A stretch of 64,000 bases of DNA from Thiotrichaceae bacterium (lineage in GTDB: Bacteria > Pseudomonadota > Gammaproteobacteria > UBA5859), in the NCBI GenBank assembly GCA_041940025.1, contig JBGTSY010000001.1:19186-83185 (forward strand), given 5' to 3'. The notes beneath the pieces were generated by a model, which was given only the letters and a program-made list of their open reading frames with translations, was not told the DNA's origin and did no database searches. This document shows positions 19,686-37,790 of this stretch, piece by piece; the first letter of the stretch is position 1, and each line of letters opens with the position of its first letter. A program made the position numbers and the translations under genes.

Positions 19686-22082
19686 CTAACTGGCCTCCTC
19701 CAACAAGCGTTTCGCCTCTTCCATCCCTTTATACGGCGAGACATCTTTGGGCAGTGCCTTCTGTAATTCTGATTTGGCCATCTCTTTTTGTCCATTGGCT
19801 AAATAGGCCGCGCCCAAATGGTAGTGAAATACCGGATTATCTAACTCACCACGGCCCTGAAGATTTTCCAATAAGGAGATGGTCTTTTCCGGTTGGTTGA
19901 GGCGATAATATAACCAGGCGTAAGTATCGATAAAAAATGGGTTATTCGAGGATTGTAAGGATTCCGCCAGCTTGACTGCTTCTTCTAAGGAGGCTTTGTC
20001 TGTGGCGTGATCGGCTATGAGAGCGGCGAGGTTATTAATGGCTAAGAGATTATTTGCATCCTTATCCAGAACCTGTCGATAGATCGCCATTGACCCATCA
20101 TAATCTTGCATGGACTCTAACAATTGAGCTTTACCAATGAGCAACCTGGGTTGTTCCGGGAATTGTGTGAGTGCGTGATCAAAAGTAGCGAGAGCTTGCT
20201 TGGTCTTTCCTTGGGCTTTGTAAACTGAGATCAAATCCAGATAGGGAGGCAGATTTGTAGCATTGTCTTTTATCATGGCGTTAAACTGCGATTCCGCGCC
20301 AGCGTAATCCCCTTTGGCAAGCATCAGCCCACCCAATAAACCCTGGCTCACCGTGTCTGCGGGCACTTTCTTTAAACGTTGTTGAAGCAGCTTCTCTGCT
20401 TGCGCGTAGCGTTTATCGGCAATAGACACCTGTACGTATTCTGTCAGTGCATTGACGTGATTATTGTGCACATCCAATACCGCGAGATAATGTTTGGCGG
20501 CTGCAGGATAGTTGCCCATCGCTCGATACATTCTGGCTCGAGTAAAATCCACTAGCGCCCGATCTGGTGCATGTTGATCCAGTGCTTGCAGCGCCTCTTC
20601 GGCCTCTGTCCATTTTTGTTGTTTGACTAGTGCGTCGATATACATCACCCAAACCGATACATTAGCTGCATTTCGGGACAGCGTCTGACGCAAGAGTTGG
20701 GTAGCTGGCTCTAACATATCCGCAGATATCAGTTGGTGTGCTAATCCCAGTCGAATATTGTCTTCTTTTGGATTCAGTTGCAGCGCTTTGGATAGGGTTT
20801 CCTTGCGTAACTCTGGTTGCCGGTTAATGCCGTGAGCCTCTGCCAACAACAGCAGTGTGCGTACCGAATCAGGCGCTTGTTCCAGAGACGACCTTAAATC
20901 TGCAATCGCGGCATCGGTCTCGTTGCGTTTCAGTTTTAAGCCACCGAGCACCATTAATGCTTCGGCATTAGTGGGTTCCCGTTCAATCACATAGTTTAAC
21001 GCTTGCTCGGCTTCGGCCTCCCGACCACCCCGAACCTGATGCAAGGCGATTTGCACCCGCGCACGTAATGCATCCGGATTATCTTTGCCCACTTCTACTA
21101 TTTGATTGAGTACTGCAATCGCTTCGTTAGGGGAAGCGGCTAAAAATTGTGCCTTTGTGAAGAGTAGATCATAGCTTTCTGGTGATTTTTTAATCAGCTC
21201 ATCGAGTCGCTGCAAGGCTTCTTCAGGTGAGTCATGACGATAAAGAAACTGAACCAGATCAATTTGATAGCTTTGCTTGTCGGGGTGATTGTCCATGCGT
21301 TGCTGCAACCAATCGATGGCGACATCCTTTTTATCTCTGGCGATTAAATAGCGCACATAGGATTGTCCCAAGGCATGATTTTCCGGCTGCAATGCCAGTT
21401 GCTCGCGGTACTGATTCTCCGCTTCGTCATGCTGACCTGAGGTCACCAGCACTTGGAGTTTGAGAAAGATGAGTCCTTGGTTGGTCTTATCCTTGGCCAA
21501 TCCTTCATTGAGGTATTGCAATGCTTTATCAAACTGTTGTTGGCTGCCGTAGAGTGTCGCCAACACGGTAGCGGCGCTGGCGTTGCCCGGCTCCTGCTGC
21601 CAAGCGGCTAACCCGTCTTCTTCGGCACCAGCCACATTTCCCTGACGCAACTTTGTGGCGCTGCGTAAAGCCAGTGCTTCGGGATGATTGGCTTCTTTTG
21701 CTAATATGGCTTCTGCGATCTCACCAGCTTCATCCATCTTTCCTCTCAACAGGGCAAACTGTGCCTGTTTGATCTTGATGTCTATGCGTTCCGGGGCCAG
21801 CTCACCGGCTCGATTCAGTAGTGCATTCATCTCCTGCCAGTTCTGCTCCCGCTCGGCAATTTTTACGAGCAGGAAAAGAGCATCGACGTTTTGTGGTTGA
21901 ATTTGCAGACTATTTTTTGCATCCAACTGCGCTTTTTCCAGACGACCCGCTTCCAGATGGGCTTCTGCTTGTTCGATAAATTTCGCGGCTTTGGTTTCGG
22001 GACGATCGCAGGCGGATAATCCTAGAATCAATGCACCCGCCACCAATATACTTGAGAGTTGCTCTTTGAATTTAGTTTTCAT
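19686..22082 (-). CDS. TPR-repeat lipoprotein, PEP-CTERM system type (PrsT-like)
   Basis: 798 aa. Lipobox LGLSAC after the signal peptide, then >15 TPR-like repeats. Sits at the edge of a PEP-CTERM-type EPS locus where PrsT normally is. Confidence 0.7.
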   Translation of the reverse strand: MKTKFKEQLSSILVAGALILGLSACDRPETKAAKFIEQAEAHLEAGRLEKAQLDAKNSLQIQPQNVDALFLLVKIAEREQNWQEMNALLNRAGELAPERIDIKIKQAQFALLRGKMDEAGEIAEAILAKEANHPEALALRSATKLRQGNVAGAEEDGLAAWQQEPGNASAATVLATLYGSQQQFDKALQYLNEGLAKDKTNQGLIFLKLQVLVTSGQHDEAENQYREQLALQPENHALGQSYVRYLIARDKKDVAIDWLQQRMDNHPDKQSYQIDLVQFLYRHDSPEEALQRLDELIKKSPESYDLLFTKAQFLAASPNEAIAVLNQIVEVGKDNPDALRARVQIALHQVRGGREAEAEQALNYVIEREPTNAEALMVLGGLKLKRNETDAAIADLRSSLEQAPDSVRTLLLLAEAHGINRQPELRKETLSKALQLNPKEDNIRLGLAHQLISADMLEPATQLLRQTLSRNAANVSVWVMYIDALVKQQKWTEAEEALQALDQHAPDRALVDFTRARMYRAMGNYPAAAKHYLAVLDVHNNHVNALTEYVQVSIADKRYAQAEKLLQQRLKKVPADTVSQGLLGGLMLAKGDYAGAESQFNAMIKDNATNLPPYLDLISVYKAQGKTKQALATFDHALTQFPEQPRLLIGKAQLLESMQDYDGSMAIYRQVLDKDANNLLAINNLAALIADHATDKASLEEAVKLAESLQSSNNPFFIDTYAWLYYRLNQPEKTISLLENLQGRGELDNPVFHYHLGAAYLANGQKEMAKSELQKALPKDVSPYKGMEEAKRLLEEAS

Positions 22083-22687
22083 TTTTCCTTAATTTTCTAT
22101 CAGTTATGTAAAAAACAGGTGCCCAATACCACAATTTATTCTGGCTAAGCATACCACTTTTAAATGTGCACCAGGTATGTTTGACACTCTCTGTTTAGGT
22201 CTGTTCCAAATTTATCTACGTCAGCCTCTAGTACTTATGGGATTCTGACCAATAGACGTTCCCGATCCTAGCCATCGTAATACTCTCAGCGTTGTTTATC
22301 ACACGCCATAATTAATGCTCTTCGCTAACTTTAATGCTATTTTTGTAACAAATAATTAATGGGTATACTTTAATATCTCGTCTTCAGTAGAAAAAGTAAC
22401 GTCGAAATAATTTTTTTACTCACAAATGCAAATTTAAGTTTGACCACTGAAAATCTTATCATAAGAACGATATGTATGAATTAGAAAAGCAATATTTCCA
22501 ACTAGATCTACTCACGATCTTAGATAAACTTGATTGAGGTATCCTTAATAAGTGGTGTTGCTTCTGTACTGAAAATTCCACACCCGTCATAGATTAGCAA
22601 GTCAAAAAACAATACACTCCGCTGAAACATTTTTTCTCCTAGTAAAATAGGAATCGAGTACCCAATTAACTCTATGGCTTTCGTGAG

Positions 22688-23995
22688 ATGGTTCTAATTG
22701 AAAAATACGCTTCCGGCATGCGTGATCTTGCCGCCATGTTCCTGTCGAAAGGGGGTGCGATAGTCGTAGGACTGACTATGCAGTCATTACTCGCCTGGCA
22801 ACTGGGGCCAGCCACAAGAGGGCAATATGCTTTGTGTTTGGTTCTGATTTCAATTTTTTCCACATTATTACTTTTTGGCACCGACTGGAGTACTCGCCAC
22901 TACCTTGCAAAGTGGCAAGACTCCACTAATCGATTAATTACTTTCGCACTTGCATATTGCTGTGTTGCTTGTCTTGCAGCAATAGTGTTGATCCCATTCG
23001 TCTTCCAATTGGACCTAAAATTCTTTGCTCATTTACCATCTGACGTTGTATTACCTACGGTATTCTGGTGCTGTTCCAATATATTTTTCTTGATAAGTTT
23101 TGCAATTCTCGGGGGATTAAGCCAGTTTAGAGTTTTGGCGATTCTTAGTCTTGTAAAACCCACGCTAACGCTATCTCTAGCCACGCTCATGTTGTTTGGT
23201 ACACAGATCCCAGAACTGATTTCTCCCATCTTCGCAGACACCATTTCTGCTTTAACTGTTTCGTCAATAGTTTTAGTTCTGTTAGTACGTTCCATGGCAT
23301 ATCGATGGATGTTTCCAAATGTGCATCTAATCAAAACTCATCTAGATTATTGTCGAAGGTTTTTTCTCGGCTCCTTTGGCATGATCGTAAACGCTCACAT
23401 TAGCCTGATAGTTATAAGTATTTTTATAACAACAGAACAAATTGGATATTTTTCACTAGCATTTGCTTTCTTATCTCAATTAATTTCGATTACTGACGTT
23501 GTGAACAATGTCTTGCAACCTAGAGTCGCTTCCAGCATGGATGGTAGACCTAGACTCATCGCCTTATCCTCCAGAACAGTCAGTAGTGTGGCGATTGTAC
23601 TGGGTGCTTTAATTATCTGGACAGGCGAAAGCTGGATACCATTGCTCTTTTCAGAAAAATTCAATCCAACCTATTCACTGCTAGTATATTTATTACCTGG
23701 CATATGGTTAAGAATGGTAGGTAAAAGCTTATTTCCATATTTTAATGGAATTAATAAACCTGAAATCGTTTCAACTACCACCCTAATCAATCTAAGTGCG
23801 AATATAATATTCCTATTTATTTTGACACCAATATTCGAGCTTAAAGGTGCTGCTGTAGCCATCACTTTAAGTTATGCAATAAGCACCGGATACATAGTTT
23901 CAATCTACTGTAAACTCAATCCAGTATTGAAATGGTCGCTTGCTTTGATTAAACCGGCAGATATTAAGTCTTTATATGATAGTTTGCTAAAATGA
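22688..23995 (+). CDS. wzx: Polysaccharide biosynthesis flippase (Wzx, MOP superfamily)
   Basis: 435 aa. About 12 predicted TM helices. Low-GC codon usage. First gene of the glycan module. Confidence 0.8.
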   Translation: MVLIEKYASGMRDLAAMFLSKGGAIVVGLTMQSLLAWQLGPATRGQYALCLVLISIFSTLLLFGTDWSTRHYLAKWQDSTNRLITFALAYCCVACLAAIVLIPFVFQLDLKFFAHLPSDVVLPTVFWCCSNIFFLISFAILGGLSQFRVLAILSLVKPTLTLSLATLMLFGTQIPELISPIFADTISALTVSSIVLVLLVRSMAYRWMFPNVHLIKTHLDYCRRFFLGSFGMIVNAHISLIVISIFITTEQIGYFSLAFAFLSQLISITDVVNNVLQPRVASSMDGRPRLIALSSRTVSSVAIVLGALIIWTGESWIPLLFSEKFNPTYSLLVYLLPGIWLRMVGKSLFPYFNGINKPEIVSTTTLINLSANIIFLFILTPIFELKGAAVAITLSYAISTGYIVSIYCKLNPVLKWSLALIKPADIKSLYDSLLK

Positions 23996-24029
23996 CACTT
24001 TTATTTGAGCGTCACGAATACCCAAAAGG

Positions 24030-25076
24030 ATGTACGACAAGGTGACAAAATCAGAATTAAGTATTGCCATTCACAATGGGGAGGGTTGGAATTCAAGATG
24101 GAGGCAATATTGTATCGATCAGAATATCCCGTATAAAGTAGTTTGTTGTTATGATTCTGATATTCTTGATCAGATTCGAGATTGCTCAGGACTGATGTGG
24201 TTCTTTCATCATGCTCGTCCTCAGGACATTCTTATGGCCAGAAACGTTCTCAATGCCGCGGAATTAATGGGATTAAAGGTATTTCCGAATTTCCATACCA
24301 ACTGGCATTTTGACGACAAGCTTTCTCAGAAGTTTCTTTTTGAAGCATTAGATTTACCCGCCGCTCCGGCATGGGCTTTTTTTGATTTTGACAGAGCTAT
24401 GGAATTTGCTGATAGTTGCGAAATTCCTATTGTAGCAAAGCTTCGTCGTGGGGCAGGGTCTTATAATGTTCGCTTGTTAAAGTCTCGTGGGCAAGTGAGA
24501 AAATATATCAAGCGGATGTTTGGTGAGGGATATTCACCATCTCCACTACCTCTGGCTGATGCCAAGACAAAGTTTAAAGTCGCAATGAGGAAAGGCGGCC
24601 TTAAAGGTGTGCTAAATCGTTTGAAAAAGGCCCCGGAATTTTTTCGTGTTGTTACCAGAGGTAGGAAATATTTCGGCAATGAAAAAGGCTATGTCTATTT
24701 TCAGAAATTCATACCTGGAAATACCTGCGATTATAGAATAAAAGTAGTTGGTGACAGAGCATGGGGTTTTCGCAGGATGGTCCGAGAGAATGATTTTCGG
24801 GCGTCGGGTAGTGGCATTCTTGATTTTGACTATCGCAAGATACCTGCAAAAATGATACTAACAGCTTTTGAATCAGCCGATAAACTAAAAATGCAGAGTG
24901 TGGCTTTTGATTTTGTCATGGATAGAGAAGGAAAGCCGTTGATTGTTGAGATAAGTTATGGTTTTGATTTCGATGAAGGTGAATCGGATATCTGGTGGGA
25001 TAGAAGTCTTAAACAACATACAGAAACATTCGATCCAACGCATCTGATTCTCAAAACATTCTTACAGAATTTTTAA
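24030..25076 (+). CDS. ATP-grasp family enzyme (sugar-modifying ligase candidate)
   Basis: 348 aa. ATP-grasp landmarks IVAKLRRGAGSYNV, YVYFQKFIPG, DYRIKVVGDRAWG, ASGSG and LIVEISYGF, arranged like RimK/D-Ala-D-Ala ligase motifs. Confidence 0.7.
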   Translation: MYDKVTKSELSIAIHNGEGWNSRWRQYCIDQNIPYKVVCCYDSDILDQIRDCSGLMWFFHHARPQDILMARNVLNAAELMGLKVFPNFHTNWHFDDKLSQKFLFEALDLPAAPAWAFFDFDRAMEFADSCEIPIVAKLRRGAGSYNVRLLKSRGQVRKYIKRMFGEGYSPSPLPLADAKTKFKVAMRKGGLKGVLNRLKKAPEFFRVVTRGRKYFGNEKGYVYFQKFIPGNTCDYRIKVVGDRAWGFRRMVRENDFRASGSGILDFDYRKIPAKMILTAFESADKLKMQSVAFDFVMDREGKPLIVEISYGFDFDEGESDIWWDRSLKQHTETFDPTHLILKTFLQNF

Positions 25077-25431
25077 TAGTTTTTAGCAAATTCGAAAAAT
25101 TAAAAATAAGGGGTTTTGCATTTTTATAACTTAAACCTAAATTCAATTTCTCGTTGGAATTCGTTATGCAACTTATAAAAAACCTGAAATCTAAATCGTT
25201 TCTTCTCTAAACAGGATCCTTCGTAAACAGGTTCAGTTTTGGGATGGGATAATGAGCAGCTATACAGTGCAGAATCAGAAACTGAATCGTTCCAAGTAAT
25301 CATGGCGAATCCTACTTCTGATAATTTCAATCAAGTAAACCTAATAGCAGTTAACTGAAAATATCTAGTAGGAGTGTGAGTTTTAGAAATACTGTACCAG
25401 TCGATTAATCTAGAGGAAAGGGAATTGAAAA

Positions 25432-25647
25432 GTGAGTGAGAAATTTGATTTTGTAATTGATAATAGCAATAATTTCCAATTTGTTGAGATCAGTTATGGA
25501 TTTATGGGACAACCGATATATGATTGTCCCGGTTATTGGGATCAACAGCAAAACTGGCACCCAGGGCACTATTGGCCAGAACACTTTATAATTGAATCAA
25601 TTTTGAAAGTCGTGAGTAACGGGCGCGCCTCATTGTCCATTGATTGA
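25432..25647 (+). pseudogene. 71-aa ORF that is a diverged copy of the last ~50 residues of the upstream ATP-grasp protein (gene 3' remnant or small expressed peptide)
   Basis: KFDFVIDNSNNFQFVEISYGF...YWDQQQNW...HF aligns with AFDFVMDREGKPLIVEISYGFDFDEGESDIWWDRSLKQHTETFDP of the 24030..25076 protein. Has a GTG start preceded by AAGGGAA. Confidence 0.5.
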
Positions 25648-25783
25648 AATAAGCTATGGTTTTGCAATTGACGAAGGGGGATTCGATATGTATTGGATAC
25701 AAGACTGGAATAGACTTCACTCTTATTTTGATCCAAGAGACTTGAATCTTCAGGCTTTTGTGAAAACCTTAAACTTAAAATAG
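25646..25783 (+). pseudogene. Second degenerate copy of the ATP-grasp C-terminal segment, in a different frame and without an obvious start
   Basis: Manual translation gives IEISYGFAIDEGGFDMYWIQDWNRLHSYFDPRDLNLQAFVKTLNLK*, matching ...VEISYGFDFDEGESDIWWDRSLKQHTETFDPTHLILKTFLQNF. Confidence 0.45.
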
Positions 25784-25834
25784 CTAGTCGAGTTTTATGC
25801 GACTGCCATTACAACTATCTATGACCATCACAGC

Positions 25835-27241
25835 ATGAGTGGAAAATCCAGCATAACCAATTCAAGCCAAAGTGTCTGGTTATATGCTGGAGCATCTTTA
25901 TTGGGAATTACTCTCCTTGTTGCGACAAAGCAATACCTCGTTGCTTCAATACTCATTTACGCGTCAGTTATTTTATTTTCACTTAAGGACCCTGTATTAG
26001 GCGTAGTATTATCTATTGCATTTTTTACTTGTGATCAGCTCTTAATAGGGTTAGGCACAGGATATCTTGCACCAGGAAGATACTTAATATTTATAAATAT
26101 CATTTTTTGTGCAAAAGGCCTTCTCTCGAGCAAGTCCAGCAAATTCACAAGAGTCCACTTTGGCTTATATTTCTCACTGGCGGCACTAGGAGCAATGTCA
26201 CTTATCTGGGCGTCTGATGTAGATCGAGGTATATTATATTTATCTAAGCTTACAGTTCTAATTATATGGGCTCGTTTAGTTGTTCCTTATCTTTCAAACA
26301 GGAGGGCATTGGAAAATCTCTCTGCACTCATGCCGCTCGCCACTTGTGTCGTAGCTTTTAACTTAATCTTTGGCGGCGTTAGCGTAACAACTATGAGCCA
26401 TCATAGATTGATCCTAGAGGGTCTAGGGATAAATGCCGTAGCTATATCTTTTGGCTTCGTAATTATATTTTCAAGTGTTTATCTAAGTGGTAGTGCCCCA
26501 TTATGGAAAAAGTTAGTTATAGCGTTTTGCAATGTGGTTATTTATTATGCAGTGCTGAAAATGGGAACAAGATCCGTTGCTCTTGGGGTTCCACTGTCAT
26601 TATTCATTGGACTGTTATTCTTGGAAAGCAAAAAATTTCTAAAGGGAGCGGGAATCGTACTAATCTCGACAACAGTGTTAGCGATAACTCTTTATATTGC
26701 AATAAATAACAATTTGATAACCGGAAAACTAGCAGAAAGATTTACAGGGCTTACAGAAATAGACACCTACTCCGAAAATAGCCGATTTTCACTAATCTCT
26801 CATTCTCTTTCTTACGTCGCAAGAAACCCACATGGATCAGGCGTCGGGAATGAACATATGGTTTTCAAAAATTATGTTTATAAAGTGGATCTTTTTGAAA
26901 CACACAACACTTTAGTTTCTACAATGGTCCAATTCGGGGTAATTGGTTTCCTTATACAACTCATAGCCTTTGGTTATCTGGGCTACCACGCTATAACAAT
27001 AAAAAACAGCACCTATAAGTATGTCCTTCTCGCATGCCTTATTTATTTTTTTATACAAATAATGAAAGGATCGTCTTTACAAACAAGACTTTTTTGGATT
27101 CCAATGGCCGTGATATGTGGTATGTTGGAATTTCACATAGTAAACGCGATATTAAAACAACGTAGATTATCGCCTTTACTAAAACACTATAAACAAGTAA
27201 CAAAGCCAAAGAAGCTTATATCAACAAATCGTCTATCATAA
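25835..27241 (+). CDS. O-antigen ligase / Wzy-like polysaccharide polymerase family membrane protein
   Basis: 468 aa polytopic membrane protein. Wzy_C-type motif ...ETHNTLVSTMVQFGVIGFL (H-N-x-x-L...G-x-x-G). Confidence 0.7.
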   Translation: MSGKSSITNSSQSVWLYAGASLLGITLLVATKQYLVASILIYASVILFSLKDPVLGVVLSIAFFTCDQLLIGLGTGYLAPGRYLIFINIIFCAKGLLSSKSSKFTRVHFGLYFSLAALGAMSLIWASDVDRGILYLSKLTVLIIWARLVVPYLSNRRALENLSALMPLATCVVAFNLIFGGVSVTTMSHHRLILEGLGINAVAISFGFVIIFSSVYLSGSAPLWKKLVIAFCNVVIYYAVLKMGTRSVALGVPLSLFIGLLFLESKKFLKGAGIVLISTTVLAITLYIAINNNLITGKLAERFTGLTEIDTYSENSRFSLISHSLSYVARNPHGSGVGNEHMVFKNYVYKVDLFETHNTLVSTMVQFGVIGFLIQLIAFGYLGYHAITIKNSTYKYVLLACLIYFFIQIMKGSSLQTRLFWIPMAVICGMLEFHIVNAILKQRRLSPLLKHYKQVTKPKKLISTNRLS

Positions 27242-28116
27242 TGCATCGCCAGAAAATAATAGGATTGGCATTTATATTATTCCACTTCTCTGGTGCATTA
27301 GTCGCTGCAGAAATACCTATTAACCAGCGCGCAGAACACCTAAAAACAAACAAACCACGTGAATGCTATGTATGGTTCGAGACCAATAGTCCTAAATATT
27401 TAAATTTATATATAGATGAATTTTCCAGCTGGAATAAGATAGGGTTTCCCATTATATCCGCTCGAATGAGTAATGCTGAAAGGTTGACTCAAACAATATT
27501 AAATCACACCCCTTCTGTGATAACTGGTTTTAAAACTTCCGACGCATTCCAAAACCGCTCCTTTACGGACGAACGAGCATGGAAAGAGATTGCGAATCTA
27601 GCCCGAAAGCTATCAAAATTAACAGGGAATAATCCTGTTGTGCTGGAAAACGAAGGTGCAGTAAAAAAGCTTCTCGATCAAGGGGTAAAATCCATTAAAT
27701 ATAATAATCTTGTAGATTCTATATCTAAGCAAAACTGGCCAGAGGTTTGGTTTTGGTATGCTCCCCAGGGAACAAAAGAGCCGGTCCGCTCTATCGCATA
27801 TGACATCGCAAGAGCCGTGAAAGTGGGAATCCCAAACTCTCGCCTGATTGAGCCATCCTCCGCTGGCTACTCAAATTCTAGAAAAAAAGCATCATCAATA
27901 GACAACCTTCGCAGGACATATTTAATCGACTCAAATCCTATATCAATAGTCTATCTGGATGATAATCGGAAACATTTCTGGAGAGTAAGTAATGCAGGAA
28001 AAGCAGTTCAAAGCGCTGAAAGCCATACCGTAATAATTTACCCTGGTTTTAACGACCTTAAAAAAGCCCGAAAAGTTTTAGAATCGCCAGTTACAAGCCT
28101 GTGCAATAAGAACTGA
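27241..28116 (+). CDS. Secreted hypothetical protein in the glycan module
   Basis: 291 aa. N-terminal signal peptide (LAFILFHFSGALVAA). No motif I can assign. Low-GC codon usage like its neighbours. Confidence 0.6.
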   Translation: MHRQKIIGLAFILFHFSGALVAAEIPINQRAEHLKTNKPRECYVWFETNSPKYLNLYIDEFSSWNKIGFPIISARMSNAERLTQTILNHTPSVITGFKTSDAFQNRSFTDERAWKEIANLARKLSKLTGNNPVVLENEGAVKKLLDQGVKSIKYNNLVDSISKQNWPEVWFWYAPQGTKEPVRSIAYDIARAVKVGIPNSRLIEPSSAGYSNSRKKASSIDNLRRTYLIDSNPISIVYLDDNRKHFWRVSNAGKAVQSAESHTVIIYPGFNDLKKARKVLESPVTSLCNKN

Positions 28117-28152
28117 TTACATTAAAAGTCCATAAGCAACTGGATTGGTAAT

Positions 28153-28935: not shown

Positions 28936-28956
28936 TTAAAAAACCAACTACCTAAC

Positions 28957-30123
28957 CTAGTAACTCTTAATAACCAGATCTACAAACAAGTCAGTCGTTA
29001 AACCTTTTGCTCGTTGGAAACCATTCTTTATTATGTTTTTTCGTAATTCAGAGTCGTCAATCAATTTTAATATAGCCTCTGACATTGCTTCTGGATCTTT
29101 TGCCGGGACTAATAGTCCGTCATAGTAATTGGTTACGCTGGAGGGTATTCCACCAACATTAGTTGAAACCAACGGAAGACTATTTGCCCGCGCTTCAACT
29201 AAAACTCTGGGTGTTCCTTCAGAAAGAGTGGGCAACACAAAAATATCCGCATTCCTCATTAAATCCGGAGTATCCTGATATCTGACATGGCCAAGCCATG
29301 CAACCTTATCCTCTACTTCAAGTTTTTCAGTTAGACTGTCCAGCTTTTGTTGATATGCAGCGTACCTATCACGGCTCCCTGCCACTATAAGCTTGACCCT
29401 TTTTTTCTTCTTGCTCACTCTAGAAACAGCATCTATGAGGTATTCAATGCCTTTTTCCGGGCGCACAAAGCAAAGGGTTAAAATTCTGATCGTTTCATCT
29501 TGACATGTATCATCTCGCTCATATAAATCCTCAGCTGACAAAGTGGTAGAAACCGTAGTTATTGTTTTTGGTGACGAATATCGATTTGCGAGCTCCTGCC
29601 CATTGCAGATAAAGGATCCCGCAGCACGTTTACGGCCTCTAATCAGTTGTCGTTCCCAACCCCAAATATACAGCCTACCTAAATTATCCATTAAAAAATT
29701 GGATCGCTTATGTGACTTCAACAACTCCATAGAATTACCAACTAGCCAATGGCAAACAGGCTTTTGGTACTGTGTACATAATTTATACAGAGTGGATGTC
29801 TCTGCAACTGGATTACCGCGCACAAAGACAAAATCGGATTCTTGAACTACATTCTTGTAACTAGTTTTTATACCTCGAATATGTTTCACACTACCCATAG
29901 TAGTTAACCAATTGGGCTGAGGATATAAAGTTAAATTGTCAGGCAGTTTATAATCCTCCTGAGAAGAGGCCTCCGGGGCCAATGGAGAACTGAGGCAAAT
30001 ATGACTAAATCGTTCCGCAAAAGCTTCAACAATTTTCCCGAATGAAAAATGCGCGTAGAGTTTTCCTTCTCTATAACTGACCCGTCCACCAATAATGCCA
30101 AGCTTAGAGTTAATACGCATCAT
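28957..30123 (-). CDS. Family 1 (GT4-like) glycosyltransferase
   Basis: 388 aa. C-terminal GT-B motif FVLPTLSEGTPRVLVEARANSLPLVSTNVGGIP. Confidence 0.85.
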   Translation of the reverse strand: MMRINSKLGIIGGRVSYREGKLYAHFSFGKIVEAFAERFSHICLSSPLAPEASSQEDYKLPDNLTLYPQPNWLTTMGSVKHIRGIKTSYKNVVQESDFVFVRGNPVAETSTLYKLCTQYQKPVCHWLVGNSMELLKSHKRSNFLMDNLGRLYIWGWERQLIRGRKRAAGSFICNGQELANRYSSPKTITTVSTTLSAEDLYERDDTCQDETIRILTLCFVRPEKGIEYLIDAVSRVSKKKKRVKLIVAGSRDRYAAYQQKLDSLTEKLEVEDKVAWLGHVRYQDTPDLMRNADIFVLPTLSEGTPRVLVEARANSLPLVSTNVGGIPSSVTNYYDGLLVPAKDPEAMSEAILKLIDDSELRKNIIKNGFQRAKGLTTDLFVDLVIKSY

Positions 30124-30208
30124 TCAGCCACCTAATAGTAATCCGCGCGAAACATTGATGGTGTTTATCTTGTTTACAATAATGGACGTTATCTAACATC
30201 CTGAAAGC

Positions 30209-31111
30209 TTAGGATGCATCGAGCGCTATATCCACGCCGCTCCGATCTAGCACTATCTTCCTAACTTTTTCCGCCTGCTCGGTTTCAGGTACGTGTGCCG
30301 GAAATACGCCCGTCCTGGCTTTATCCTTTAACACCGCCAGAATGGTGCGCGCGCCAATGGATTTATGTTCCGCAGCATAGCCATATACCAAAGACAAATC
30401 ACACAGGGTATTGATCAAACGAGGAATACCACCGCTATGATAAAAAATGGTGGCAACAGAAAATGTGTCAAACAACGGTGCCTCTCGCCCTGACACGAGC
30501 AACCGATGCTTAATGTAATTGACGGTGTCTTGTAAACTTAAGGCTTGTAAATGGTAGTCTACACACACACGTTGCGCCAATTGTCTGAGTTCCGGCTGTT
30601 TCAATTTATCTAACAATTCAGTTTGACCCACTAACACCAACTGCAACAATGAATGTTTCCCATAATTAATATTAGACAACATTCTCAACTCCTCTAAAGA
30701 GTTGACGTTCAGATTCTGTGCCTCGTCTACGATGAGTGCCGTGCGGTAACCAGAAGCATATTGCTGCATCAGGAAGTTTTGAAAACGCTCATACAACTCG
30801 GGCTTGTCCGCACCTTGATGAGGTTGTTCAAAGGCCATCAATACCCACTTCATAAATTCACCGAACTCACTGTGGGTATTCGACACCAATCCGGCACGAA
30901 CCGTTTTATCCAGGGTATCTAAAACATGTCGTACTAAAGTCGTCTTGCCACACCCCACTTCACCAGTAATCACAGAAATGCCCGCCTCACTCTCCAAGCT
31001 ATATTCCAGAAGATTGAGCGCTATCTGATGGCTTTGACCGAAATAGAGAAATTCCGGATCCGGATTCAGATTAAAAGGTTTGCTGGCTAAACCGTAATAC
31101 TCTAGATACAT
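30209..31111 (-). CDS. ExeA-like AAA ATPase (putative secretion ATPase of PEP-CTERM/EPS loci)
   Basis: 300 aa. Walker A GEVGCGKTT and Walker B LIVDEAQNL. Located between the GTs and the BY-kinase as in described PEP-CTERM eps loci. Confidence 0.75.
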   Translation of the reverse strand: MYLEYYGLASKPFNLNPDPEFLYFGQSHQIALNLLEYSLESEAGISVITGEVGCGKTTLVRHVLDTLDKTVRAGLVSNTHSEFGEFMKWVLMAFEQPHQGADKPELYERFQNFLMQQYASGYRTALIVDEAQNLNVNSLEELRMLSNINYGKHSLLQLVLVGQTELLDKLKQPELRQLAQRVCVDYHLQALSLQDTVNYIKHRLLVSGREAPLFDTFSVATIFYHSGGIPRLINTLCDLSLVYGYAAEHKSIGARTILAVLKDKARTGVFPAHVPETEQAEKVRKIVLDRSGVDIALDAS

Positions 31112-31153
31112 TGTCTGATCCTATTGTTACATTTTTTTTATATTTATTAATAT

Positions 31154-31990
31154 TTAGTATGGATCAGGCTGTGGATCCATGGATCGATTCAGCACTGTAC
31201 CCAATAACTCCGCATCCTTTGTTAATTCCAGGCAATGGGCAACGTCCGATTCGCTCACCCCCCCCTCATCTACCACCAACAGAAAAGCATCTACCTTGGG
31301 CAACAAATTTAGCGTGTCATCAACACTTAACAAGGGTGGTGCGTCGATAATAATGAGCCTGTCCCCATACCTATTAACCGCTTCCTGAAGCCATTTTTCC
31401 ATTTCAGGACTGGCCATCCATTCTGCCGAATCGGGAATTGACTGGCCACCAGGTAACACCACTAAACGGTCTATCCCGGGATGAAACAGTATCTCTTCGA
31501 CAGTTATATTCCCTCGTACTAAATCTGCCAAGCCCATACCCAATGGATAATTAAAAAATTGATGAATGGAGGGACGACGCATATCGGCGTCCACTAACAT
31601 GACCGTGTGGTTTCTATCTCGGGCCATCGCAGCAGCTAGATTTGCCGCCACAAAAGATTTACCCGCGTTGTCTCGTGCACTCGTCACCACTAGTGTTTGC
31701 CACCCCTCAACTTGCATTTTTTGCATGATTCGAGTACGCAATATATTAAAGGCTGCGGCGCCCTCGGTCTCTTCCGATCCAACAACAATACGACTATCCA
31801 ATAGTTGTTGTGGAGTCAATGGCCATGACTGGGTGCGCCAATATTTGATTTCACTGGTGGAAAGTGGGGTCGGCGTATCAACAGCTTTCAAGCTAGGCGG
31901 CTGTGTGACCTCTCTACTCTGACCAAAGTTTAACTTTGTCTGACCTTCTTCTCTGGCTCGCTGCAACGCCTGTTCAATTGGATGCGCCAT
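31154..31990 (-). CDS. Exopolysaccharide tyrosine autokinase (BY-kinase catalytic protein, Wzc C-terminal-like)
   Basis: Walker A' SARDNAGKS, Walker B LIIIDAPP and DxD. Preferred ATG at 31988-31990 abuts the stop of the upstream chain-length determinant. The track ORF extends to 32026. Confidence 0.8.
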   Translation of the reverse strand: MAHPIEQALQRAREEGQTKLNFGQSREVTQPPSLKAVDTPTPLSTSEIKYWRTQSWPLTPQQLLDSRIVVGSEETEGAAAFNILRTRIMQKMQVEGWQTLVVTSARDNAGKSFVAANLAAAMARDRNHTVMLVDADMRRPSIHQFFNYPLGMGLADLVRGNITVEEILFHPGIDRLVVLPGGQSIPDSAEWMASPEMEKWLQEAVNRYGDRLIIIDAPPLLSVDDTLNLLPKVDAFLLVVDEGGVSESDVAHCLELTKDAELLGTVLNRSMDPQPDPY

Positions 31991-31992
31991 CG

Positions 31993-33741
31993 CTATATCC
32001 CTATCCTTTGTTGTACTACTGTCCACAAGACATCTACCGGCACCAACAAAAAGTGTGCGGCGACAGCCAATGCAATGACACCCGTCAAGCTACTGGCAAA
32101 AGTCAGTCGCTTGACTCGGAGTGCTTTCTTTTTTTCCGTGGGCGTTTTTACCACTGGGATCACGGCTAATGGGGAGGCACCTGTAATTTTGGTCAGCGAA
32201 CGAGCGCCGTATAGATTGGGATCTAAACTCTCTCTAAAGACAATGAACCCAAAGCCTGCTGCCAAAGAAAGAAACACGCCAATCAATAAGATGGAGAGCC
32301 TATTCGGGCTAACTGGACTCACGGGTAATAGCGGCGGTTCAATCAAAGAAAATCGTTCACCCTTTCTTTCCTCCTCCATAGAAGTAGAAATATCTGCTTC
32401 CATTTGTCTGGATTTCAATTCACGAAATTTGTTCACTGCGTTTTCATAGTCTCTGCTTAGGGTGCGATAGGTCTGCTCCACCGCGGGTGCAGTCAATAAG
32501 CGTCTTTCGTAGGTAGCATATTTTTCGGATAGATCGTCCAATTTGGTTTGAAGAGAAGTTTTCTCCGTGGTGACGGCATCGAGCTGTGCTTTTAAGGATA
32601 AGTACGCCGGGTTGTCCGGTACCGGGGCAACCTGCTCCGCGTCGGTTTCCAGGCTGTGGATCAACCGCAATTCTGATTTGAGTTTTTCAATCACCTGAGA
32701 CTGCGCAATGATGTCCGGATGCTTAGCCGAATATCGTTTCAGTAATCTGGCCAGTTCATTTTGTGCCACAACCAACTTTTTGTTTAATGTTTTCGTATCT
32801 ACTTGTCCGCCTGTCTGGGTCCGAAGCACGGTGATTTCATTTTCAACACGGACGAGATCTGGATGACTAGGCGCGTAACGAGACAACATACTCACTCGTT
32901 CTGCCTCCAGTAATTTTAATCGTTCACTACGGGACAGAACTCGTTCGCCTTTCTCACCCACTATTGACGCTTCCGGAGAGAGTTGAGTCAGTTCGGCCTT
33001 TAAATAGAGTTCACGTTCTGTGAGTACTTGAATTTGTCTGCGGACTTCATCAATCTGCAGTTCTGTTCGTTGCAAGATTTGCCGATTAATGACACCGTGT
33101 TCTGGTAGATTATCAGGATGTTTCTCTTTGAACTCCGCTAGGGCTTGTTCATATTCCTCTATTTGTTCACTCAATTTTTCTGTTTCCAAACTCAGAAAAT
33201 CGGACGCCTGACGAGCAGTCTGGGTACGCGCACGAAAATTTTCCTCCATAAAAAGAGAGACCAGTTCGTTGGAAACTTTTTGCGCTAACTGAGGAGAGGG
33301 ACTTTGATACCCTAATGTGAACGCAATGGTGGCTTGCACTGGCCTACCGCTACGAGGATCCACCACATCTGCACTCACCATGTCGATATGGATCTGCTCA
33401 CGCATACGCGCGAGCACAGAACTTAAAGGCGTTGTTTTTAACTCTTCCTGATAGAGATCATATTTTTGCACGATACGGCCGAGGTTACTGGTGCTCAGTA
33501 CCATTTGACTGATCATCTGAATACGTTGATCCGCATAACTGGTAACCGTTGAACGTACCAAGTCTGAGGGGATTTCTTGATGCTCGATTAAGATGGTGGC
33601 GCTTGACCGATACTGAGCCGGTATAAACAACGCCGCAGCCAAAGCTGCAATTAAGATAACCAGTGCCGGTACCACACCTTGACGCCACCGACGTTTGACG
33701 ATCTCTAACAGATCACCAAGATCCTTAACATTTTCTTCCAA
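31993..33741 (-). CDS. Polysaccharide chain-length determinant protein (Wzz/Wzc N-terminal-like, PEP-CTERM locus type)
   Basis: 582 aa. N-terminal TM, long coiled-coil periplasmic region, C-terminal TM (LSILLIGVFLSLAAGFGFIVF). Confidence 0.8.
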   Translation of the reverse strand: MEENVKDLGDLLEIVKRRWRQGVVPALVILIAALAAALFIPAQYRSSATILIEHQEIPSDLVRSTVTSYADQRIQMISQMVLSTSNLGRIVQKYDLYQEELKTTPLSSVLARMREQIHIDMVSADVVDPRSGRPVQATIAFTLGYQSPSPQLAQKVSNELVSLFMEENFRARTQTARQASDFLSLETEKLSEQIEEYEQALAEFKEKHPDNLPEHGVINRQILQRTELQIDEVRRQIQVLTERELYLKAELTQLSPEASIVGEKGERVLSRSERLKLLEAERVSMLSRYAPSHPDLVRVENEITVLRTQTGGQVDTKTLNKKLVVAQNELARLLKRYSAKHPDIIAQSQVIEKLKSELRLIHSLETDAEQVAPVPDNPAYLSLKAQLDAVTTEKTSLQTKLDDLSEKYATYERRLLTAPAVEQTYRTLSRDYENAVNKFRELKSRQMEADISTSMEEERKGERFSLIEPPLLPVSPVSPNRLSILLIGVFLSLAAGFGFIVFRESLDPNLYGARSLTKITGASPLAVIPVVKTPTEKKKALRVKRLTFASSLTGVIALAVAAHFLLVPVDVLWTVVQQRIGI

Positions 33742-33888
33742 CTTGTATGCTCCCCAGCTCTACCTAAGAAAGAATATTTTTATGGGTCGAACAATGAGTC
33801 TATGCAGCGAGACGCTTGGTTTCGCCAATTGCCTATTATAAGTATGCAGAGCAGTGAAAACTACTAAAAACCAGTTGAGTGGCGTGAA

Positions 33889-35115
33889 TTACAGACTTCG
33901 ATGATAAGGTAACCATCGGTGCTGATAATTAAATATTATCGCGTGGGCTTCCGCCTCACTGTTTTGATTATTAAACTCTTGGTATCTATATCGATAAGCA
34001 ATTGATAATGTAGATTTTTCAGATTGTCGCCAAGTCAGCCCTGGTTGCAAACTATAATAGTCCCGATCACTAGTGGCAGAGTTATTACTGACTTCCCGAT
34101 TAGTTATCCATTGGACTCGATTGGTCCATGATAATCGCCTACTCAGTCTCCCTTGCTGATTTAAACTGAAAGTATCGGATTCTAAAAATTCTCCACCACC
34201 ACTGGGCCGAGTACTCCGTTGTAACTGCAAACGCAATTGATGAGATAGAAACTCTCTGCTGATCTGCACATTTAACAGGGAACCTTGTTCATCAGACTCA
34301 AATTCCACGGGTGTCACAGTAAAAAAGAAAAAGTTTGGAACCAGGATCACCGTCTTGGTAGTGGTTTCTCGTACGCCCACAGAAAAGTTGTACTCCCAGA
34401 GTTCGTTCAGCGCACCTTGTACGCCCACGGTAATTCCAAGATTTTTAACTTCTTGTTGATTTAATTCAGTTTGATATTGTGAAAGGGACAGTGCGATAAC
34501 CGCTCGATGCGCCGGTCTAAATTGATGATGCCAATCCGTATTCAAATAATAATAGTCATAATCCACCAGTCCGGATTGCGCCGAGTCCGCATAGTCCACC
34601 TGCTGCCCATTTAGTTGCAGAGAGAGCAGATTTAATTCACTGACTGAGTATTGCCCACTCACAAAAGCGGTAGAAACTTCTCGTCGAATCTGATTTTGAA
34701 TCAGTCCGGAAACATCTAATTCGCTCACTAGAGAGGAATCGCGATTATGGCTTAGGCCAAATTGGCTACTGAACGTTGCTTGCTGCCATTGACTGTCGAA
34801 CTGCACCTTCTGGTTATCGTAGTCAAAACCATCCTGCTCTGTATAGTTGCGGGACGCCAATCCCAGACCTAGTTGATGACGCCAAATGGTACTGGAACGC
34901 TTCAGGTTAAGATCAAAATTCAGACTCTGAGTTGAATCTGAGAGCTTATCTGTTTCGGTGAGACGTATATTATCTTGATAATCTGCACCCACCCGACCAT
35001 TGGCATCCACCTGATACAAGGCGCCTAGGAGTGGGCCGTGAAAAAAAAGTGCACATAAAAAAAAAGAAAAAGTGGATAGATATCGCACGGGAGAGCTGCA
35101 CAACATAGTGGCCAT
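33889..35115 (-). CDS. Putative outer-membrane beta-barrel protein associated with the EPS export module
   Basis: 408 aa. Signal peptide, then alternating amphipathic beta-strand-like segments with abundant Y/W/Q/N. Co-located with Wza-like and Wzz-like genes. Confidence 0.55.
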   Translation of the reverse strand: MATMLCSSPVRYLSTFSFFLCALFFHGPLLGALYQVDANGRVGADYQDNIRLTETDKLSDSTQSLNFDLNLKRSSTIWRHQLGLGLASRNYTEQDGFDYDNQKVQFDSQWQQATFSSQFGLSHNRDSSLVSELDVSGLIQNQIRREVSTAFVSGQYSVSELNLLSLQLNGQQVDYADSAQSGLVDYDYYYLNTDWHHQFRPAHRAVIALSLSQYQTELNQQEVKNLGITVGVQGALNELWEYNFSVGVRETTTKTVILVPNFFFFTVTPVEFESDEQGSLLNVQISREFLSHQLRLQLQRSTRPSGGGEFLESDTFSLNQQGRLSRRLSWTNRVQWITNREVSNNSATSDRDYYSLQPGLTWRQSEKSTLSIAYRYRYQEFNNQNSEAEAHAIIFNYQHRWLPYHRSL

Positions 35116-35744
35116 TAAGGCACTATCACCACGTCACCCGCTTTTAACAGCATGTTTTGGTATAAATTTTCCCCGTCCATGACCTCCTTATACTTAAATG
35201 GGAAAACTATCTGCTTGTCTCCATTCCTTCTCAATACTTTGACTTTGTTTGATGAGCCAAAAGCAGTCAGTCCCCCCGCCATACTAAGTGCCTGCATCAC
35301 GTCCACCGGTCGATTGATGAGATAGTCCCCTGGTTTATTTACCTGACCTAACACATAGATGCGATTGCCCAATAGCTGAGTGGCACTGACAGTAATCACG
35401 GGATCGGGAATATACTGCTGCAAGGCTTCCGTTAAGCTCTGCTGCAAGGCTTCGACGGAAAGTCCGCTCGCCATCACCTGTCCCACGAGAGGAAAAGAGA
35501 TAGAGCCATCGGGTAATACCAACACCTCCCGTTGCAGATTTTCTTCCTTCCAAACTGATATCTGTAAGATATCGCCGGGGTGAATCAGATAGTGCTTTCG
35601 AGCCAGATCCTCTGTTACCGAAGATCCTAAAGTGTCGGCTTGAAGCCCAAAAGAGAGACTCAAAAGGAGTAACGGCCCGATTTTCAGAAAATGACTGCAA
35701 GCAAACAACAGCATGTTTTTCATCTGTGGCCTCATTTCCAACAA
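35115..35744 (-). CDS. Polysaccharide export protein (Wza-like Poly_export + SLBB domain, short PEP-CTERM-locus form)
   Basis: 209 aa. Signal peptide. Poly_export motif PGDILQISVW...PDGSISFPLVG and SLBB GQVNKPG. Confidence 0.8.
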   Translation of the reverse strand: MLEMRPQMKNMLLFACSHFLKIGPLLLLSLSFGLQADTLGSSVTEDLARKHYLIHPGDILQISVWKEENLQREVLVLPDGSISFPLVGQVMASGLSVEALQQSLTEALQQYIPDPVITVSATQLLGNRIYVLGQVNKPGDYLINRPVDVMQALSMAGGLTAFGSSNKVKVLRRNGDKQIVFPFKYKEVMDGENLYQNMLLKAGDVVIVP

Positions 35745-36114
35745 AATAGAAGGATTAAATTAGTTGCAGGGTTATTCGCTAATCTGTTCTGTCAGACGTT
35801 CTTTGTGTCACACGCAAGATTGAGTTCAATACCAATCCAGTAATCATGTGTGATTACATTAGATAACATGGTACTACTAATATATTACATTCCGATGTCA
35901 GAAATCCATTGCAAACTTGAAGGATGTCATTGAAATCCATGAATGATGGCGTCCAGACGTCTACCCCTGGAGATCAGAGATTAGGCAACCTGTTGTCCGA
36001 CCAAGCAAGATTAAGAAAAATCTAAGACTAAAGGGAACATGAAATCCGTATAAACCCTAGTTCCCCCAACATGCAAATAGCTCATTAGGTTTTAGTTGTG
36101 GAAACTGATTATGC

Positions 36115-36627
36115 TCACCCGACGGTATTGGTCTCAGGTTGCCTTCTGTGTCCAACTATTAGGAACCCTAACAAGGACGAAAAGAGTAACCAGATACTAG
36201 CTGGAATAGGGATGGCACTAGGATCGCTCAGTAATGAACCTTTAACTGAATAGAGGCCCCAGTCGAACAGTCCCGTATTGGCTTCACCAGTAATAGAAAA
36301 ATCATAGATTCCCGCAGCCAATACGCCGCTAAATGAATAGACTAAACCGTTTCCGGAAGTCGAAGTACTTTCTGTGAGAAATCCTAGTTCAGGAATCACG
36401 TCAAAATTATCAATGGTAGGATAGTTTTCAGTCACCACTGAAAAAGTGAGATCTACTAAGGTAGTTTGAGTCAGATCTAGTGTTCCGATATCAGAAAAAT
36501 CAGAGAAACGTAAATGTAATGAAACCACTCCATTTCCATCATCTTCAATCATGTAAGTAGCGGCATTAGAAAAAGCGGCAACAGAAAAACTCGACACTAA
36601 AAGTAATGCCTGTATAAATTTGTTCAT
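36115..36627 (-). CDS. Secreted protein with C-terminal PEP-CTERM-type sorting signal (IPIPA variant)
   Basis: Signal peptide MNKFIQALLLVSSFSVAAFS. C-terminus ...DPSAIPIPASIWLLFSSLLGFLIVGHRRQ, which is a P-x-P motif, a TM helix and an Arg cluster. Confidence 0.65.
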   Translation of the reverse strand: MNKFIQALLLVSSFSVAAFSNAATYMIEDDGNGVVSLHLRFSDFSDIGTLDLTQTTLVDLTFSVVTENYPTIDNFDVIPELGFLTESTSTSGNGLVYSFSGVLAAGIYDFSITGEANTGLFDWGLYSVKGSLLSDPSAIPIPASIWLLFSSLLGFLIVGHRRQPETNTVG

Positions 36628-37092
36628 TGTAACCATTCCCCAAAAATGTTGAATACAGCACAATTATTAAACATCCAGACAAAATAAATATTACAATGAA
36701 AATACTACTGGGTAAATTAAATACCGCTTAAAAAAATTAATTTCGCAAATAAAAACAAACTCTACTTTTGCAAGTTGATTAATTTGCATGCAATTGGTTA
36801 AGTAATAAACAATCAACCAACTTATATGTGCTGACAAAACAACCCGGAGCAATCGAGAATTTATCTACAACTGTATTGCAATCTAAAAAATGATTGGCAG
36901 AATACGTCATTGCGGATCAGAAAATGACTATAGAAATTGGTGCCAGGATACCAACCATGACTTTCCTATAAGCTTAATATAATCGATCACGCGATTTCTT
37001 TTGTTACTCTTTAGTTAATTTATCTACGCCTCCCCTTCTAAAGCCAACAGGATGTTGGCATTAAATCATTCCGTCTACGGAAGGAGGGATTC

Positions 37093-37746
37093 ATGCTATT
37101 TAAACAATCAAAGTTATCCAATTCGCTTGCACTGATGACGCTACCGGCAAGCATCTCTTTATCGGCCGCAACCATTGAACCAGGGGATTTAATCATTACG
37201 GAAGTGATGGCGAATCCTAAAGCCGTCTCCGATGCAAATGGAGAGTGGTTTGAAATATACAATGCCACCAGCAGTACCCTTAATTTAGCCAACTTAAATT
37301 TATCCGATGATGGTTCTAACAACCATACAGTAGCTAGTGATCCATTAAATCTGGCACCAAACAGTTTCTTCGTATTCGGTCGTAATGGTAATACAACAAC
37401 CAACGGTGGATACACCGCAGATTATGTCTATTCTGGTTTCACACTATCAAACGACAGTGATCAGATCATTCTTAGTCTTGGTGGAATTGTGATTGCACAG
37501 TTGGCCTATACTGGGGGATTCGTAATAAATGGAATCAGCTCTGAGTTAAAAAGTTTACCCAGTCTAGTAAGCAATTTTGGCGGCACACCTGAAGAAGCCA
37601 GTTATCTATTTGGTGATGGTGACTATGGGACGCCAGGCGCCATGAATTCCACGGACTTTACTGCCGTGCCCCTGCCTGCAGCTTTGCCGCAATTGTTATT
37701 GGCCCTGGGTGCACTATTTGGAATTAGGATAAAACAAAAAAGATAA
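37093..37746 (+). CDS. Lamin-tail-domain (LTD) protein with C-terminal VPLPA-CTERM / PEP-CTERM sorting signal
   Basis: 217 aa. LTD signature DLIITEVMANP...NGEWFEIYN...NLSD...FFVFG. C-terminus TAVPLPAALPQLLLALGALFGIRIKQKR. Strong SD GGAGGG upstream. Confidence 0.75.
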   Translation: MLFKQSKLSNSLALMTLPASISLSAATIEPGDLIITEVMANPKAVSDANGEWFEIYNATSSTLNLANLNLSDDGSNNHTVASDPLNLAPNSFFVFGRNGNTTTNGGYTADYVYSGFTLSNDSDQIILSLGGIVIAQLAYTGGFVINGISSELKSLPSLVSNFGGTPEEASYLFGDGDYGTPGAMNSTDFTAVPLPAALPQLLLALGALFGIRIKQKR

Positions 37747-37754
37747 GTCCAAAA

Positions 37755-37790
37755 CAAAGAGCCCCTCTGCAATAACAGAGGGGCTCTTTG
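37755..37790. terminator. Bidirectional intrinsic terminator between the LTD protein gene and rpsI
   Basis: Perfect 15-bp stem CAAAGAGCCCCTCTG-caataa-CAGAGGGGCTCTTTG followed by TTTG. Confidence 0.7.

Follow-up and report, generated by a model that had tools for sequence, protein, structure and literature searches.

A predicted XrtD/VPLPA-CTERM export-and-cargo locus with no linked exosortase gene in a Thiotrichaceae bacterium

We analyzed a 64-kb stretch of contig JBGTSY010000001.1 from a Thiotrichaceae bacterium, referred to hereafter as the window, and describe the locus at 19686-37746 (all coordinates are those of the window unless another record is named), in which exopolysaccharide (EPS) genes adjoin the genes for two secreted proteins with similar C-terminal tails. 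With a probability of roughly three in four, this locus is the export-and-cargo part of an XrtD/VPLPA-CTERM system that makes its exopolysaccharide by the Wzx/Wzy route and whose XrtD gene lies elsewhere in the genome. A preliminary description of the same DNA had proposed an exosortase-type EPS locus with VPLPA-type cargo. The genes it named were all found where it had placed them, and the type of locus was supported with one refinement, XrtD rather than XrtA.

Family assignments were made by NCBIfam and Pfam searches scored against curated cut-offs. For each of six proteins, five belonging to an export cassette and one a lipoprotein with tetratricopeptide repeats (TPR), the top NCBIfam match was an XrtA-associated model, and all six scored below the curated cut-off. 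The cassette includes a short outer membrane polysaccharide export (OPX) protein and a polysaccharide co-polymerase (PCP).

19686-22082, minus strand: TPR lipoprotein, 798 aa, PrsT-like, of the ~800-aa type, lipobox LSAC (TIGR02917 283.3 bits, E 3.5e-84, cut-off 312.2)
30209-31111, minus strand: ExeA-like AAA ATPase (TIGR03015 270.2 bits, cut-off 324.5)
31154-31990, minus strand: BY-type tyrosine autokinase, cytoplasmic, 278 aa (TIGR03018 166 bits, cut-off 230.65)
31993-33741, minus strand: PCP or chain-length determinant, 582 aa (TIGR03007 277.3 bits, cut-off 278.85)
33889-35115, minus strand: outer-membrane beta-barrel protein, 408 aa, partner of the short OPX protein (TIGR03016 26.5 bits, cut-off 90.85)
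35115-35744, minus strand: short Wza-like OPX protein, about 202-209 aa (TIGR03027 134.2 bits, cut-off 180; EpsY model NF041843 101 bits)

For the kinase, the ATG at 31990 (278 aa) was preferred over the GTG at 32026 of the listed open reading frame (ORF), and 278 aa is also the length called in the related loci L001 and L005. PF02563 and SLBB domains are recorded on a near-identical ortholog of the OPX protein which, judged from its predicted length, is too short to hold an outer-membrane-spanning domain. The structure model of the barrel has 18 strands at moderate confidence (predicted local distance difference test score 71, from a shallow alignment), and AlgE was among its structural matches.

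The two cargo proteins stand at the OPX end of the cassette. Both are secreted, and both end in a (V/I)P(L/I)PA motif, a membrane helix and a cluster of basic residues.

36115-36663, minus strand: small secreted cargo protein with an IPIPA motif, helix and HRRQ tail, ending AIPIPASIWLLFSSLLGFLIVGHRRQPETNTVG (TIGR03370 21.9 bits)
37093-37746, plus strand: cargo protein with a lamin-tail domain (LTD) and a VPLPA motif, helix and RIKQKR tail, ending AVPLPAALPQLLLALGALFGIRIKQKR (PF00932 57.2 bits, cut-off 34.3; TIGR03370 17.5 bits)

The likely start of the small cargo protein is the ATG at 36627. The PF00932 score confirms the lamin-tail domain that had been read in one cargo protein, and the VPLPA assignment was supported: TIGR03370, the VPLPA-CTERM model, is the best model for both tails, the tails are conserved, and proteins with VPxPA tails recur beside homologous cassettes. 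In the whole window, no other ORF of at least 40 aa has a Pro-x-Pro motif together with a hydrophobic stretch and a basic end, and both genes abut the cassette. Comparison with L002, the matching locus of Thiotrichaceae bacterium UBA5859, gave 56% identity for the small cargo protein overall and about 87% for its tail. The LTD cargo protein is conserved in L002 and L005, and its tail is nearly unchanged between the window and UBA5859. Judged by these alignments, the tails are conserved more strongly than the cargo background, across about 20% DNA divergence. The bodies of small cargo proteins from different lineages were rejected as homologs, since only their tails align.

The link to XrtD comes from other organisms. 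Metagenome contigs were scanned with an alignment of the chain-length determinant, which yielded 80 loci, including 27 of 12 kb or more; all six-frame ORFs of the 80 loci were then searched with a control exosortase and with a hidden Markov model built from its matches. An exosortase was present in two loci only, L040 and L063. Both exosortases carry a fused EpsI domain and score above the cut-off of the XrtD model TIGR04152 (567.6 and 610.7 bits against 400), while on the XrtA model they reach 181-187 bits (cut-off 208). On these scores both are bona fide XrtD enzymes, specific for VPLPA-CTERM. The genes of L040 encode, in order, a VPLPA cargo protein, a short OPX protein, a barrel, a co-polymerase, a kinase, an ATPase, a TIGR03790 protein, XrtD, a WecA-like transferase and an 822-aa TPR protein. 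The TIGR03790-family gene (L040:11016-12065; 178 bits, cut-off 67), between those for the ATPase and XrtD, has no counterpart in the window.

Read from the rpsI side, the window encodes the LTD cargo protein, the small cargo protein, the OPX protein, the 408-aa barrel, the 582-aa chain-length determinant, the BY-kinase and the ExeA-like ATPase, and then a GT4 and a GT2 glycosyltransferase (GT), a 291-aa protein, a 468-aa protein, ATP-grasp remnants, an ATP-grasp enzyme, Wzx and the 798-aa TPR lipoprotein. It thus contains both ends of an L040-type locus, homologous to and collinear with the XrtD-bearing loci L040 and L063, and has a Wzx/Wzy/GT block where L040 has the TIGR03790, XrtD and WecA genes, none of which is found in the window locus. 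Its OPX-barrel-PCP order is unlike that of XrtA systems, which is OPX-PCP-kinase-barrel. The chain-length determinant shares 42-43% identity with those of L040 and L063, and the TPR lipoprotein aligns over its full length with the 822-aa protein of L040 (27% identity, E 5e-68). The nearest relatives of the TPR lipoprotein outside its lineage are also of ~800 aa (25-33% identity) and are named plainly "TPR protein" or "PilF"; canonical PrsT proteins of ~920 aa are distant matches (E 1e-15 to 1e-24). The earlier label "PrsT-like" is therefore fair in that TIGR02917 is the best model, but at 283.3 against 312.2 bits the protein appears to be the version found at XrtD loci and not canonical PrsT. 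Among the cargo proteins encoded beside XrtD, that of L063 passes TIGR03370 (28.8 bits) and that of L040 does not (15.5 bits), so that the window tails fall within the range of real XrtD loci.

The cassette belongs to a wider group. Its chain-length determinant has thousands of relatives; a clade at 40-49% identity is widespread, and a dense group at 43-49% includes gammaproteobacteria such as Methylotuvimicrobium sp. KM1, Methylicorpusculum and Chromatiales and is annotated only as "GumC family". The OPX-barrel-co-polymerase-kinase unit recurs in four long records (L012, from Methylotuvimicrobium sp. KM1, L013, L018 and L019), followed by the ATPase gene in all except L013. Variable sugar genes stand downstream in three of them and housekeeping genes in L012. 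The barrel genes were homologous throughout the related cassettes tested. The proteins tested from L012, L018 and L040 had XrtA models as their best matches and scored below cut-off, the barrel and the L040 TPR protein excepted; the L012 barrel gave no NCBIfam match at all, and XrtA models were again best, and below cut-off, for the chain-length determinant and ATPase of L063. By these scores the cassettes that fall below the XrtA cut-offs form a coherent sister clade. Tails of the VPxPA, helix and basic-cluster type are encoded beside homologous cassettes in L006 (three in a row), L013, L019 and L020 and occur in 19 of the 80 metagenome loci. Such cargo proteins scored 10.8 to 46.4 bits on TIGR03370, and the L013 protein passes at 35.0 bits. 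In L020 the gene for a VPIPA-tailed protein has one for a relative of the TPR lipoprotein immediately downstream, and the same locus encodes a WecA-like transferase as well as a short OPX protein and a barrel.

In two complete genomes, a block encoding a DUF2341-LamG-MotA/ExbB fusion, ExbD, a proline-rich TonB-like protein, Porin_5 and a coiled-coil protein precedes the cassette (L018:2580-8054 and L019:802-6203). This block is conserved between L018 and L019 and is absent from the window.

The HMM searches bear out the preliminary description with one correction: the XrtA-associated models and TIGR03370 were the best ones, but none of these scores reached its curated cut-off. The first of these results could also be read as a canonical XrtA/PEP-CTERM (EpsH) locus under PrsK/PrsR and sigma54 control, with its XrtA gene elsewhere. 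XrtA-associated models are, after all, the best NCBIfam matches for all six proteins, and the chain-length determinant is only 1.6 bits under the TIGR03007 cut-off. All six nevertheless stay below cut-off, as does the whole clade save the TPR protein of L040, and the tails fit VPLPA-CTERM better than PEP-CTERM, since the PEP-CTERM model TIGR02595 (cut-off 16) gave 13.3 bits for one tail and no match for the other. The clade-linked exosortases, moreover, score far higher as XrtD than as XrtA. Nor is the expected control apparatus in evidence. No PrsK-like kinase and no PrsR or other sigma54 activator was found among the window ORFs, and neither PrsK nor PrsR turned up in the flanks known from near-identical contigs (~10 kb on the left, ~8 kb on the right). 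Sites resembling TGGCAC-N5-TTGC number three in the window, against 3.4 expected by chance, with none upstream of the cargo genes. We consider an XrtA system improbable. Because the cassette falls under the XrtA cut-offs, the clade-linked exosortases are XrtD only and the TPR lipoprotein belongs with those of XrtD loci, the system is assigned, on profile and alignment scores, to XrtD and not to XrtA.

As for other regulators, a sigma54 activator with a VpsR-like N-terminal domain is encoded in L020 (5272-6720), upstream of the VPIPA-cargo/TPR gene pair; it may be an alternative to PrsK/PrsR control in the cassette clade.

The preliminary description had found neither an exosortase nor PrsK/PrsR in the window, and for the exosortase, too, family and phmmer searches agree. 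None of the four polytopic ORFs in the 64 kb (Wzx, PF01943; an EamA transporter; a ZnuB-like ABC-3 permease; the 468-aa protein) matches an exosortase family, and a positive-control exosortase (L004:1978-3039; TIGR02602 182.8 bits, cut-off 105.55), used as a phmmer --max query against all six-frame window ORFs, gave nothing below E 8. Beyond the window edges, where the preliminary description had suggested looking, near-identical contigs supply ~10 kb on the left (minCDE, an ABC transporter, thiE) and ~8 kb on the right (MGMT, response regulators, a DnaE-type polymerase cassette), again with no exosortase Pfam or phmmer match. A literature search on VPLPA-CTERM, and on exosortases in Thiotrichaceae or Methylotuvimicrobium, found nothing relevant.

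Absence of the sortase gene from the locus is the usual state in the cassette clade. Of the metagenome loci of at least 12 kb, 25 of 27 lack XrtD within 10 kb, and no exosortase was found within 10 kb of the cassette in L012, L013, L018 or L019, nor in any of the five long loci when L020 is counted. Since only 2 of the 27 long loci have XrtD within 10 kb, a sortase encoded elsewhere is favored, and it is much more likely than a non-canonical one. Split systems have precedent: in Aquincola, pepA-prsT, epsB2-prsK-prsR and the EPS cluster each occupy a locus of their own (PMC9850573). Haft 2006 found EpsH near EPS genes in 90% of cases (PMC1569441).

A lineage without any exosortase, in which the VPLPA-like tails are plain membrane anchors, relics or substrates of an unrelated protease, would also account for the missing gene and for tails that stay sub-threshold, and Chlorobium tepidum provides a precedent, with two PEP-CTERM proteins and no EpsH in its genome (PMC1569441). 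Against it, the tails are more conserved than the rest of the cargo over about 20% DNA divergence, the sortase is usually unlinked in this clade in any case, and no alternative intramembrane protease was found in the window. We regard this explanation as unlikely. It is similarly doubtful that XrtD was lost while the export cassette and the two conserved cargo proteins were kept, with the tails now serving as permanent inner-membrane anchors or undergoing non-exosortase processing; if true, the locus would show sorting signals at work in nature with no sortase to serve them.

That the locus is a generic capsule or O-antigen locus unrelated to protein sorting, its two tails being due to chance, is very improbable: Wzx, Wzy, GTs, co-polymerase and OPX are common to all Wzx/Wzy loci and strains exchange the central block, as happens at capsule loci, but the only two tailed ORFs in 64 kb both abut the cassette, the association of cassette and tail recurs in unrelated lineages, the ExeA-like ATPase and TPR lipoprotein are marks of exosortase-type loci, and the tailed neighbors and XrtD-linked loci of the clade already contradict it.

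Several observations weigh against an XrtD/VPLPA-CTERM system with the sortase gene elsewhere. Only two loci tie the cassette clade directly to XrtD, and in the source organism no exosortase was seen across the window and the ~18 kb of flank supplied by near-identical contigs (~82 kb covered). Both tails lie under the TIGR03370 cut-off (21.9 and 17.5 against 25.35 bits), a Pro-Gln pair falls within the first part of the helix in the LTD cargo tail, where TIGR03370 covers only 17 of 25 positions, and the TPR protein is likewise below its curated cut-off. The window has no protein with PF02397 or PF00953, hence no recognizable priming phosphoglycosyl transferase, and nucleotide-sugar genes are absent from the locus. 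A WecA-like priming transferase is present in the relatives L020, L040 and L063.

The Wzx/Wzy part of the assignment rests on the block between the ATPase and TPR genes.

22688-23995, plus strand: Wzx-type flippase, 435 aa, about 9 transmembrane segments (PF01943 31.8 bits, cut-off 28.2)
24030-25076, plus strand: ATP-grasp enzyme, RimK-like (TIGR00768 E 6e-9, under cut-off)
25432-25783, plus strand: two putative decayed remnants of an ATP-grasp C-terminus, in a 760-bp gap (fragments FVEISYGF and MIEISYGFAIDEGG are similar to the terminal part of the 24030-25076 gene)
25835-27241, plus strand: predicted Wzy-type polymerase, 468 aa, about 12 transmembrane segments (assigned via homologs)
27241-28116, plus strand: 291-aa protein with an N-terminal hydrophobic leader (no Pfam or NCBIfam family match)
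28153-28935, minus strand: GT2 glycosyltransferase, TuaG-like (NF047683 273 bits, cut-off 400; DNA 84% identical to the GT2 gene of L005)
28957-30123, minus strand: GT4 glycosyltransferase (many GT4 families match, E down to 8e-29)

The 468-aa protein had been credited with an O-antigen-ligase motif. Pfam did not detect one directly, but the assignment stands by way of homologs: an exhaustive HMMER search returned 82 relatives, and 38 of the 41 that were aligned match PF04932 (Wzy_C). R246, R302, R317, G334, G336 and H357 are invariant in the alignment. The protein itself gave no direct Pfam or NCBIfam match and no match among PDB sequences, and BLASTP found no similarity to a Wzy_C protein of L013. 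Its homologs argue that it is a Wzy-type polymerase and not an exosortase. The ATP-grasp enzyme is probably a glycan-modifying ligase. Direct repeat D1 joins 24896-24924 with 25434-25462, and the ORF fragments at 25432-25783, with their EISYGF motif, are best read as decayed paralog remnants of the ATP-grasp gene in a gap that is otherwise empty.

From the gene content, the family relations, the architecture and conservation of the tails and the link between clade and XrtD in other organisms, we infer the following biochemistry, together with the presence of XrtD in the source genome. The GT2 and GT4 enzymes would build repeat units on undecaprenyl phosphate, perhaps modified by the ATP-grasp enzyme. 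Wzx would flip these units and Wzy polymerize them, under the control of the 582-aa co-polymerase, the separate tyrosine kinase and the ExeA-like ATPase. The polymer might leave the cell by a composite translocon in which the short OPX protein, in the periplasm, is joined to the neighboring 18-strand outer-membrane barrel. The two cargo proteins would be exported through Sec and stay anchored in the inner membrane by the helix at the C-terminus of each until XrtD, encoded elsewhere, cuts them at (V/I)P(L/I)PA and hands them to the cell surface or the EPS matrix. The product would be a strain-specific exopolysaccharide whose matrix is decorated with two sorted proteins.

Parts of this scheme have counterparts in known systems. 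A composite short-OPX/barrel translocon has been described for Myxococcus EpsY/EpsX and is widespread in other bacteria (PMC9601211). The expected parts, an OPX protein of no more than 280 aa with a PES motif and an adjoining gene for an 18-strand barrel, fit the window (202-209 aa, PF02563 on the near-identical ortholog, 18 modeled strands), which also encodes both Wzx and Wzy. Like the Myxococcus system, it places a ~205-aa OPX protein beside a predicted 18-strand barrel within a pathway that depends on Wzx/Wzy; unlike it, the window keeps kinase and co-polymerase as two proteins and adds an ExeA-like ATPase and sorted cargo, and with the libraries used no sequence relation could be detected between its barrel and EpsX. 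With the XrtA/PEP-CTERM/EpsH system (PMC1569441) the window shares the short OPX protein, barrel, chain-length determinant, kinase, ExeA-like ATPase and TPR lipoprotein, as well as tailed cargo in single-gene units with long upstream regions and the coupling of EPS export to protein sorting. It differs in its sub-threshold scores on the XrtA models, in having VPLPA/IPIPA and not PEP motifs and in lacking PrsK/PrsR and a sigma54 site. PepA is a small tailed protein that holds EPS on cells (PMC9850573). The PepA-PrsT floc system of Aquincola and Zoogloea (PMC9850573) resembles the system proposed here in its small tailed protein and its spread over several loci; the tail of the small cargo protein weakly resembles the floc_PepA model, and the L020 cargo gene adjoins a TPR gene. 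PepA, however, is RpoN-dependent and of the XrtA type, and the body of the window cargo protein is unrelated, with only the tail aligning.

Since the pairing of XrtD with VPLPA-CTERM is already curated and split exosortase systems are known, the locus carries little weight for basic biology and its main value is for annotation. The export cassette that goes with XrtD, and most of the TPR proteins, belong to a clade widespread in methanotrophs, Thiotrichaceae-like bacteria, Chromatiales and soil and sediment metagenomes. Because this clade scores just under the XrtA cut-offs, pipelines label its members just "GumC family" or "TPR protein", and their connection with protein sorting drops out of the annotation.

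Close relatives carry different sugar genes. Contig ERR4801157_1044 (222,849 bp) and the window share 99.7% identity at 52-64 kb and only 96.6% across 30080-45081; after the ATPase gene the contig encodes a GT4, a hexapeptide acetyltransferase, a GT2 and a methyltransferase, genes other than those of the window. The glycan block at 22100-30080 is therefore replaced in an otherwise 99.7%-identical strain. In UBA5859 the two cargo genes and all five export genes are retained at the matching site beside rpsI, followed by different sugar genes; its chain-length determinant is 83% identical and its ATPase 93% identical (L002) to those of the window. Since relatives keep the export and cargo modules and differ in the glycan block, the former appear fixed and the latter exchanged between strains. 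The block, with the drop of adjoining conserved genes to 96.6% DNA identity, resembles the recombination hot spots of capsule loci. A repeat search around it revealed neither insertion-sequence ends nor flanking repeats, and its G+C content is 38-39% in the 22-30 kb segment as against 44-51% around it. Differing glycan genes between fixed export and TPR modules in near-identical strains recall a capsule serotype locus and suggest a surface polymer under diversifying selection while the sorted proteins are kept.

The locus is flanked by housekeeping genes, rpiA (18987-19682) on one side and rpsI/rplM (37846-38763) on the other, and its edge at rpsI contains one further feature, likely a two-way terminator that marks the boundary.

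37752-37793, no strand: perfect 18-bp hairpin in the gap between the LTD cargo gene and rpsI (inverted repeat I2, 100% complementary)

Scanned against Rfam from end to end, the window yielded tRNA-Phe and 6S RNA only, and thus no regulatory RNA in the locus. The 6S RNA (ssrS, 15675-15858) lies directly upstream of a 5-formyltetrahydrofolate cyclo-ligase gene (15886-16470), the classic ssrS-ygfA pair. The tRNA-Phe (GAA, 62494-62569) follows mutY and yggX-like genes and precedes a 127-aa ORF without an assigned function (62813-63196). Just right of the window, in a near-identical contig (L014:17169-20273), genes for 221- and 485-aa proteins without a Pfam match are followed by a DnaE-type polymerase gene; the group looks like an imuA-imuB-dnaE2 mutagenesis cassette. 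Within the window, at 53062-56052, znuA- and znuB-like genes are preceded by the gene for a 416-aa protein that has a signal peptide, matches no family and may be an outer-membrane partner of the zinc transporter.

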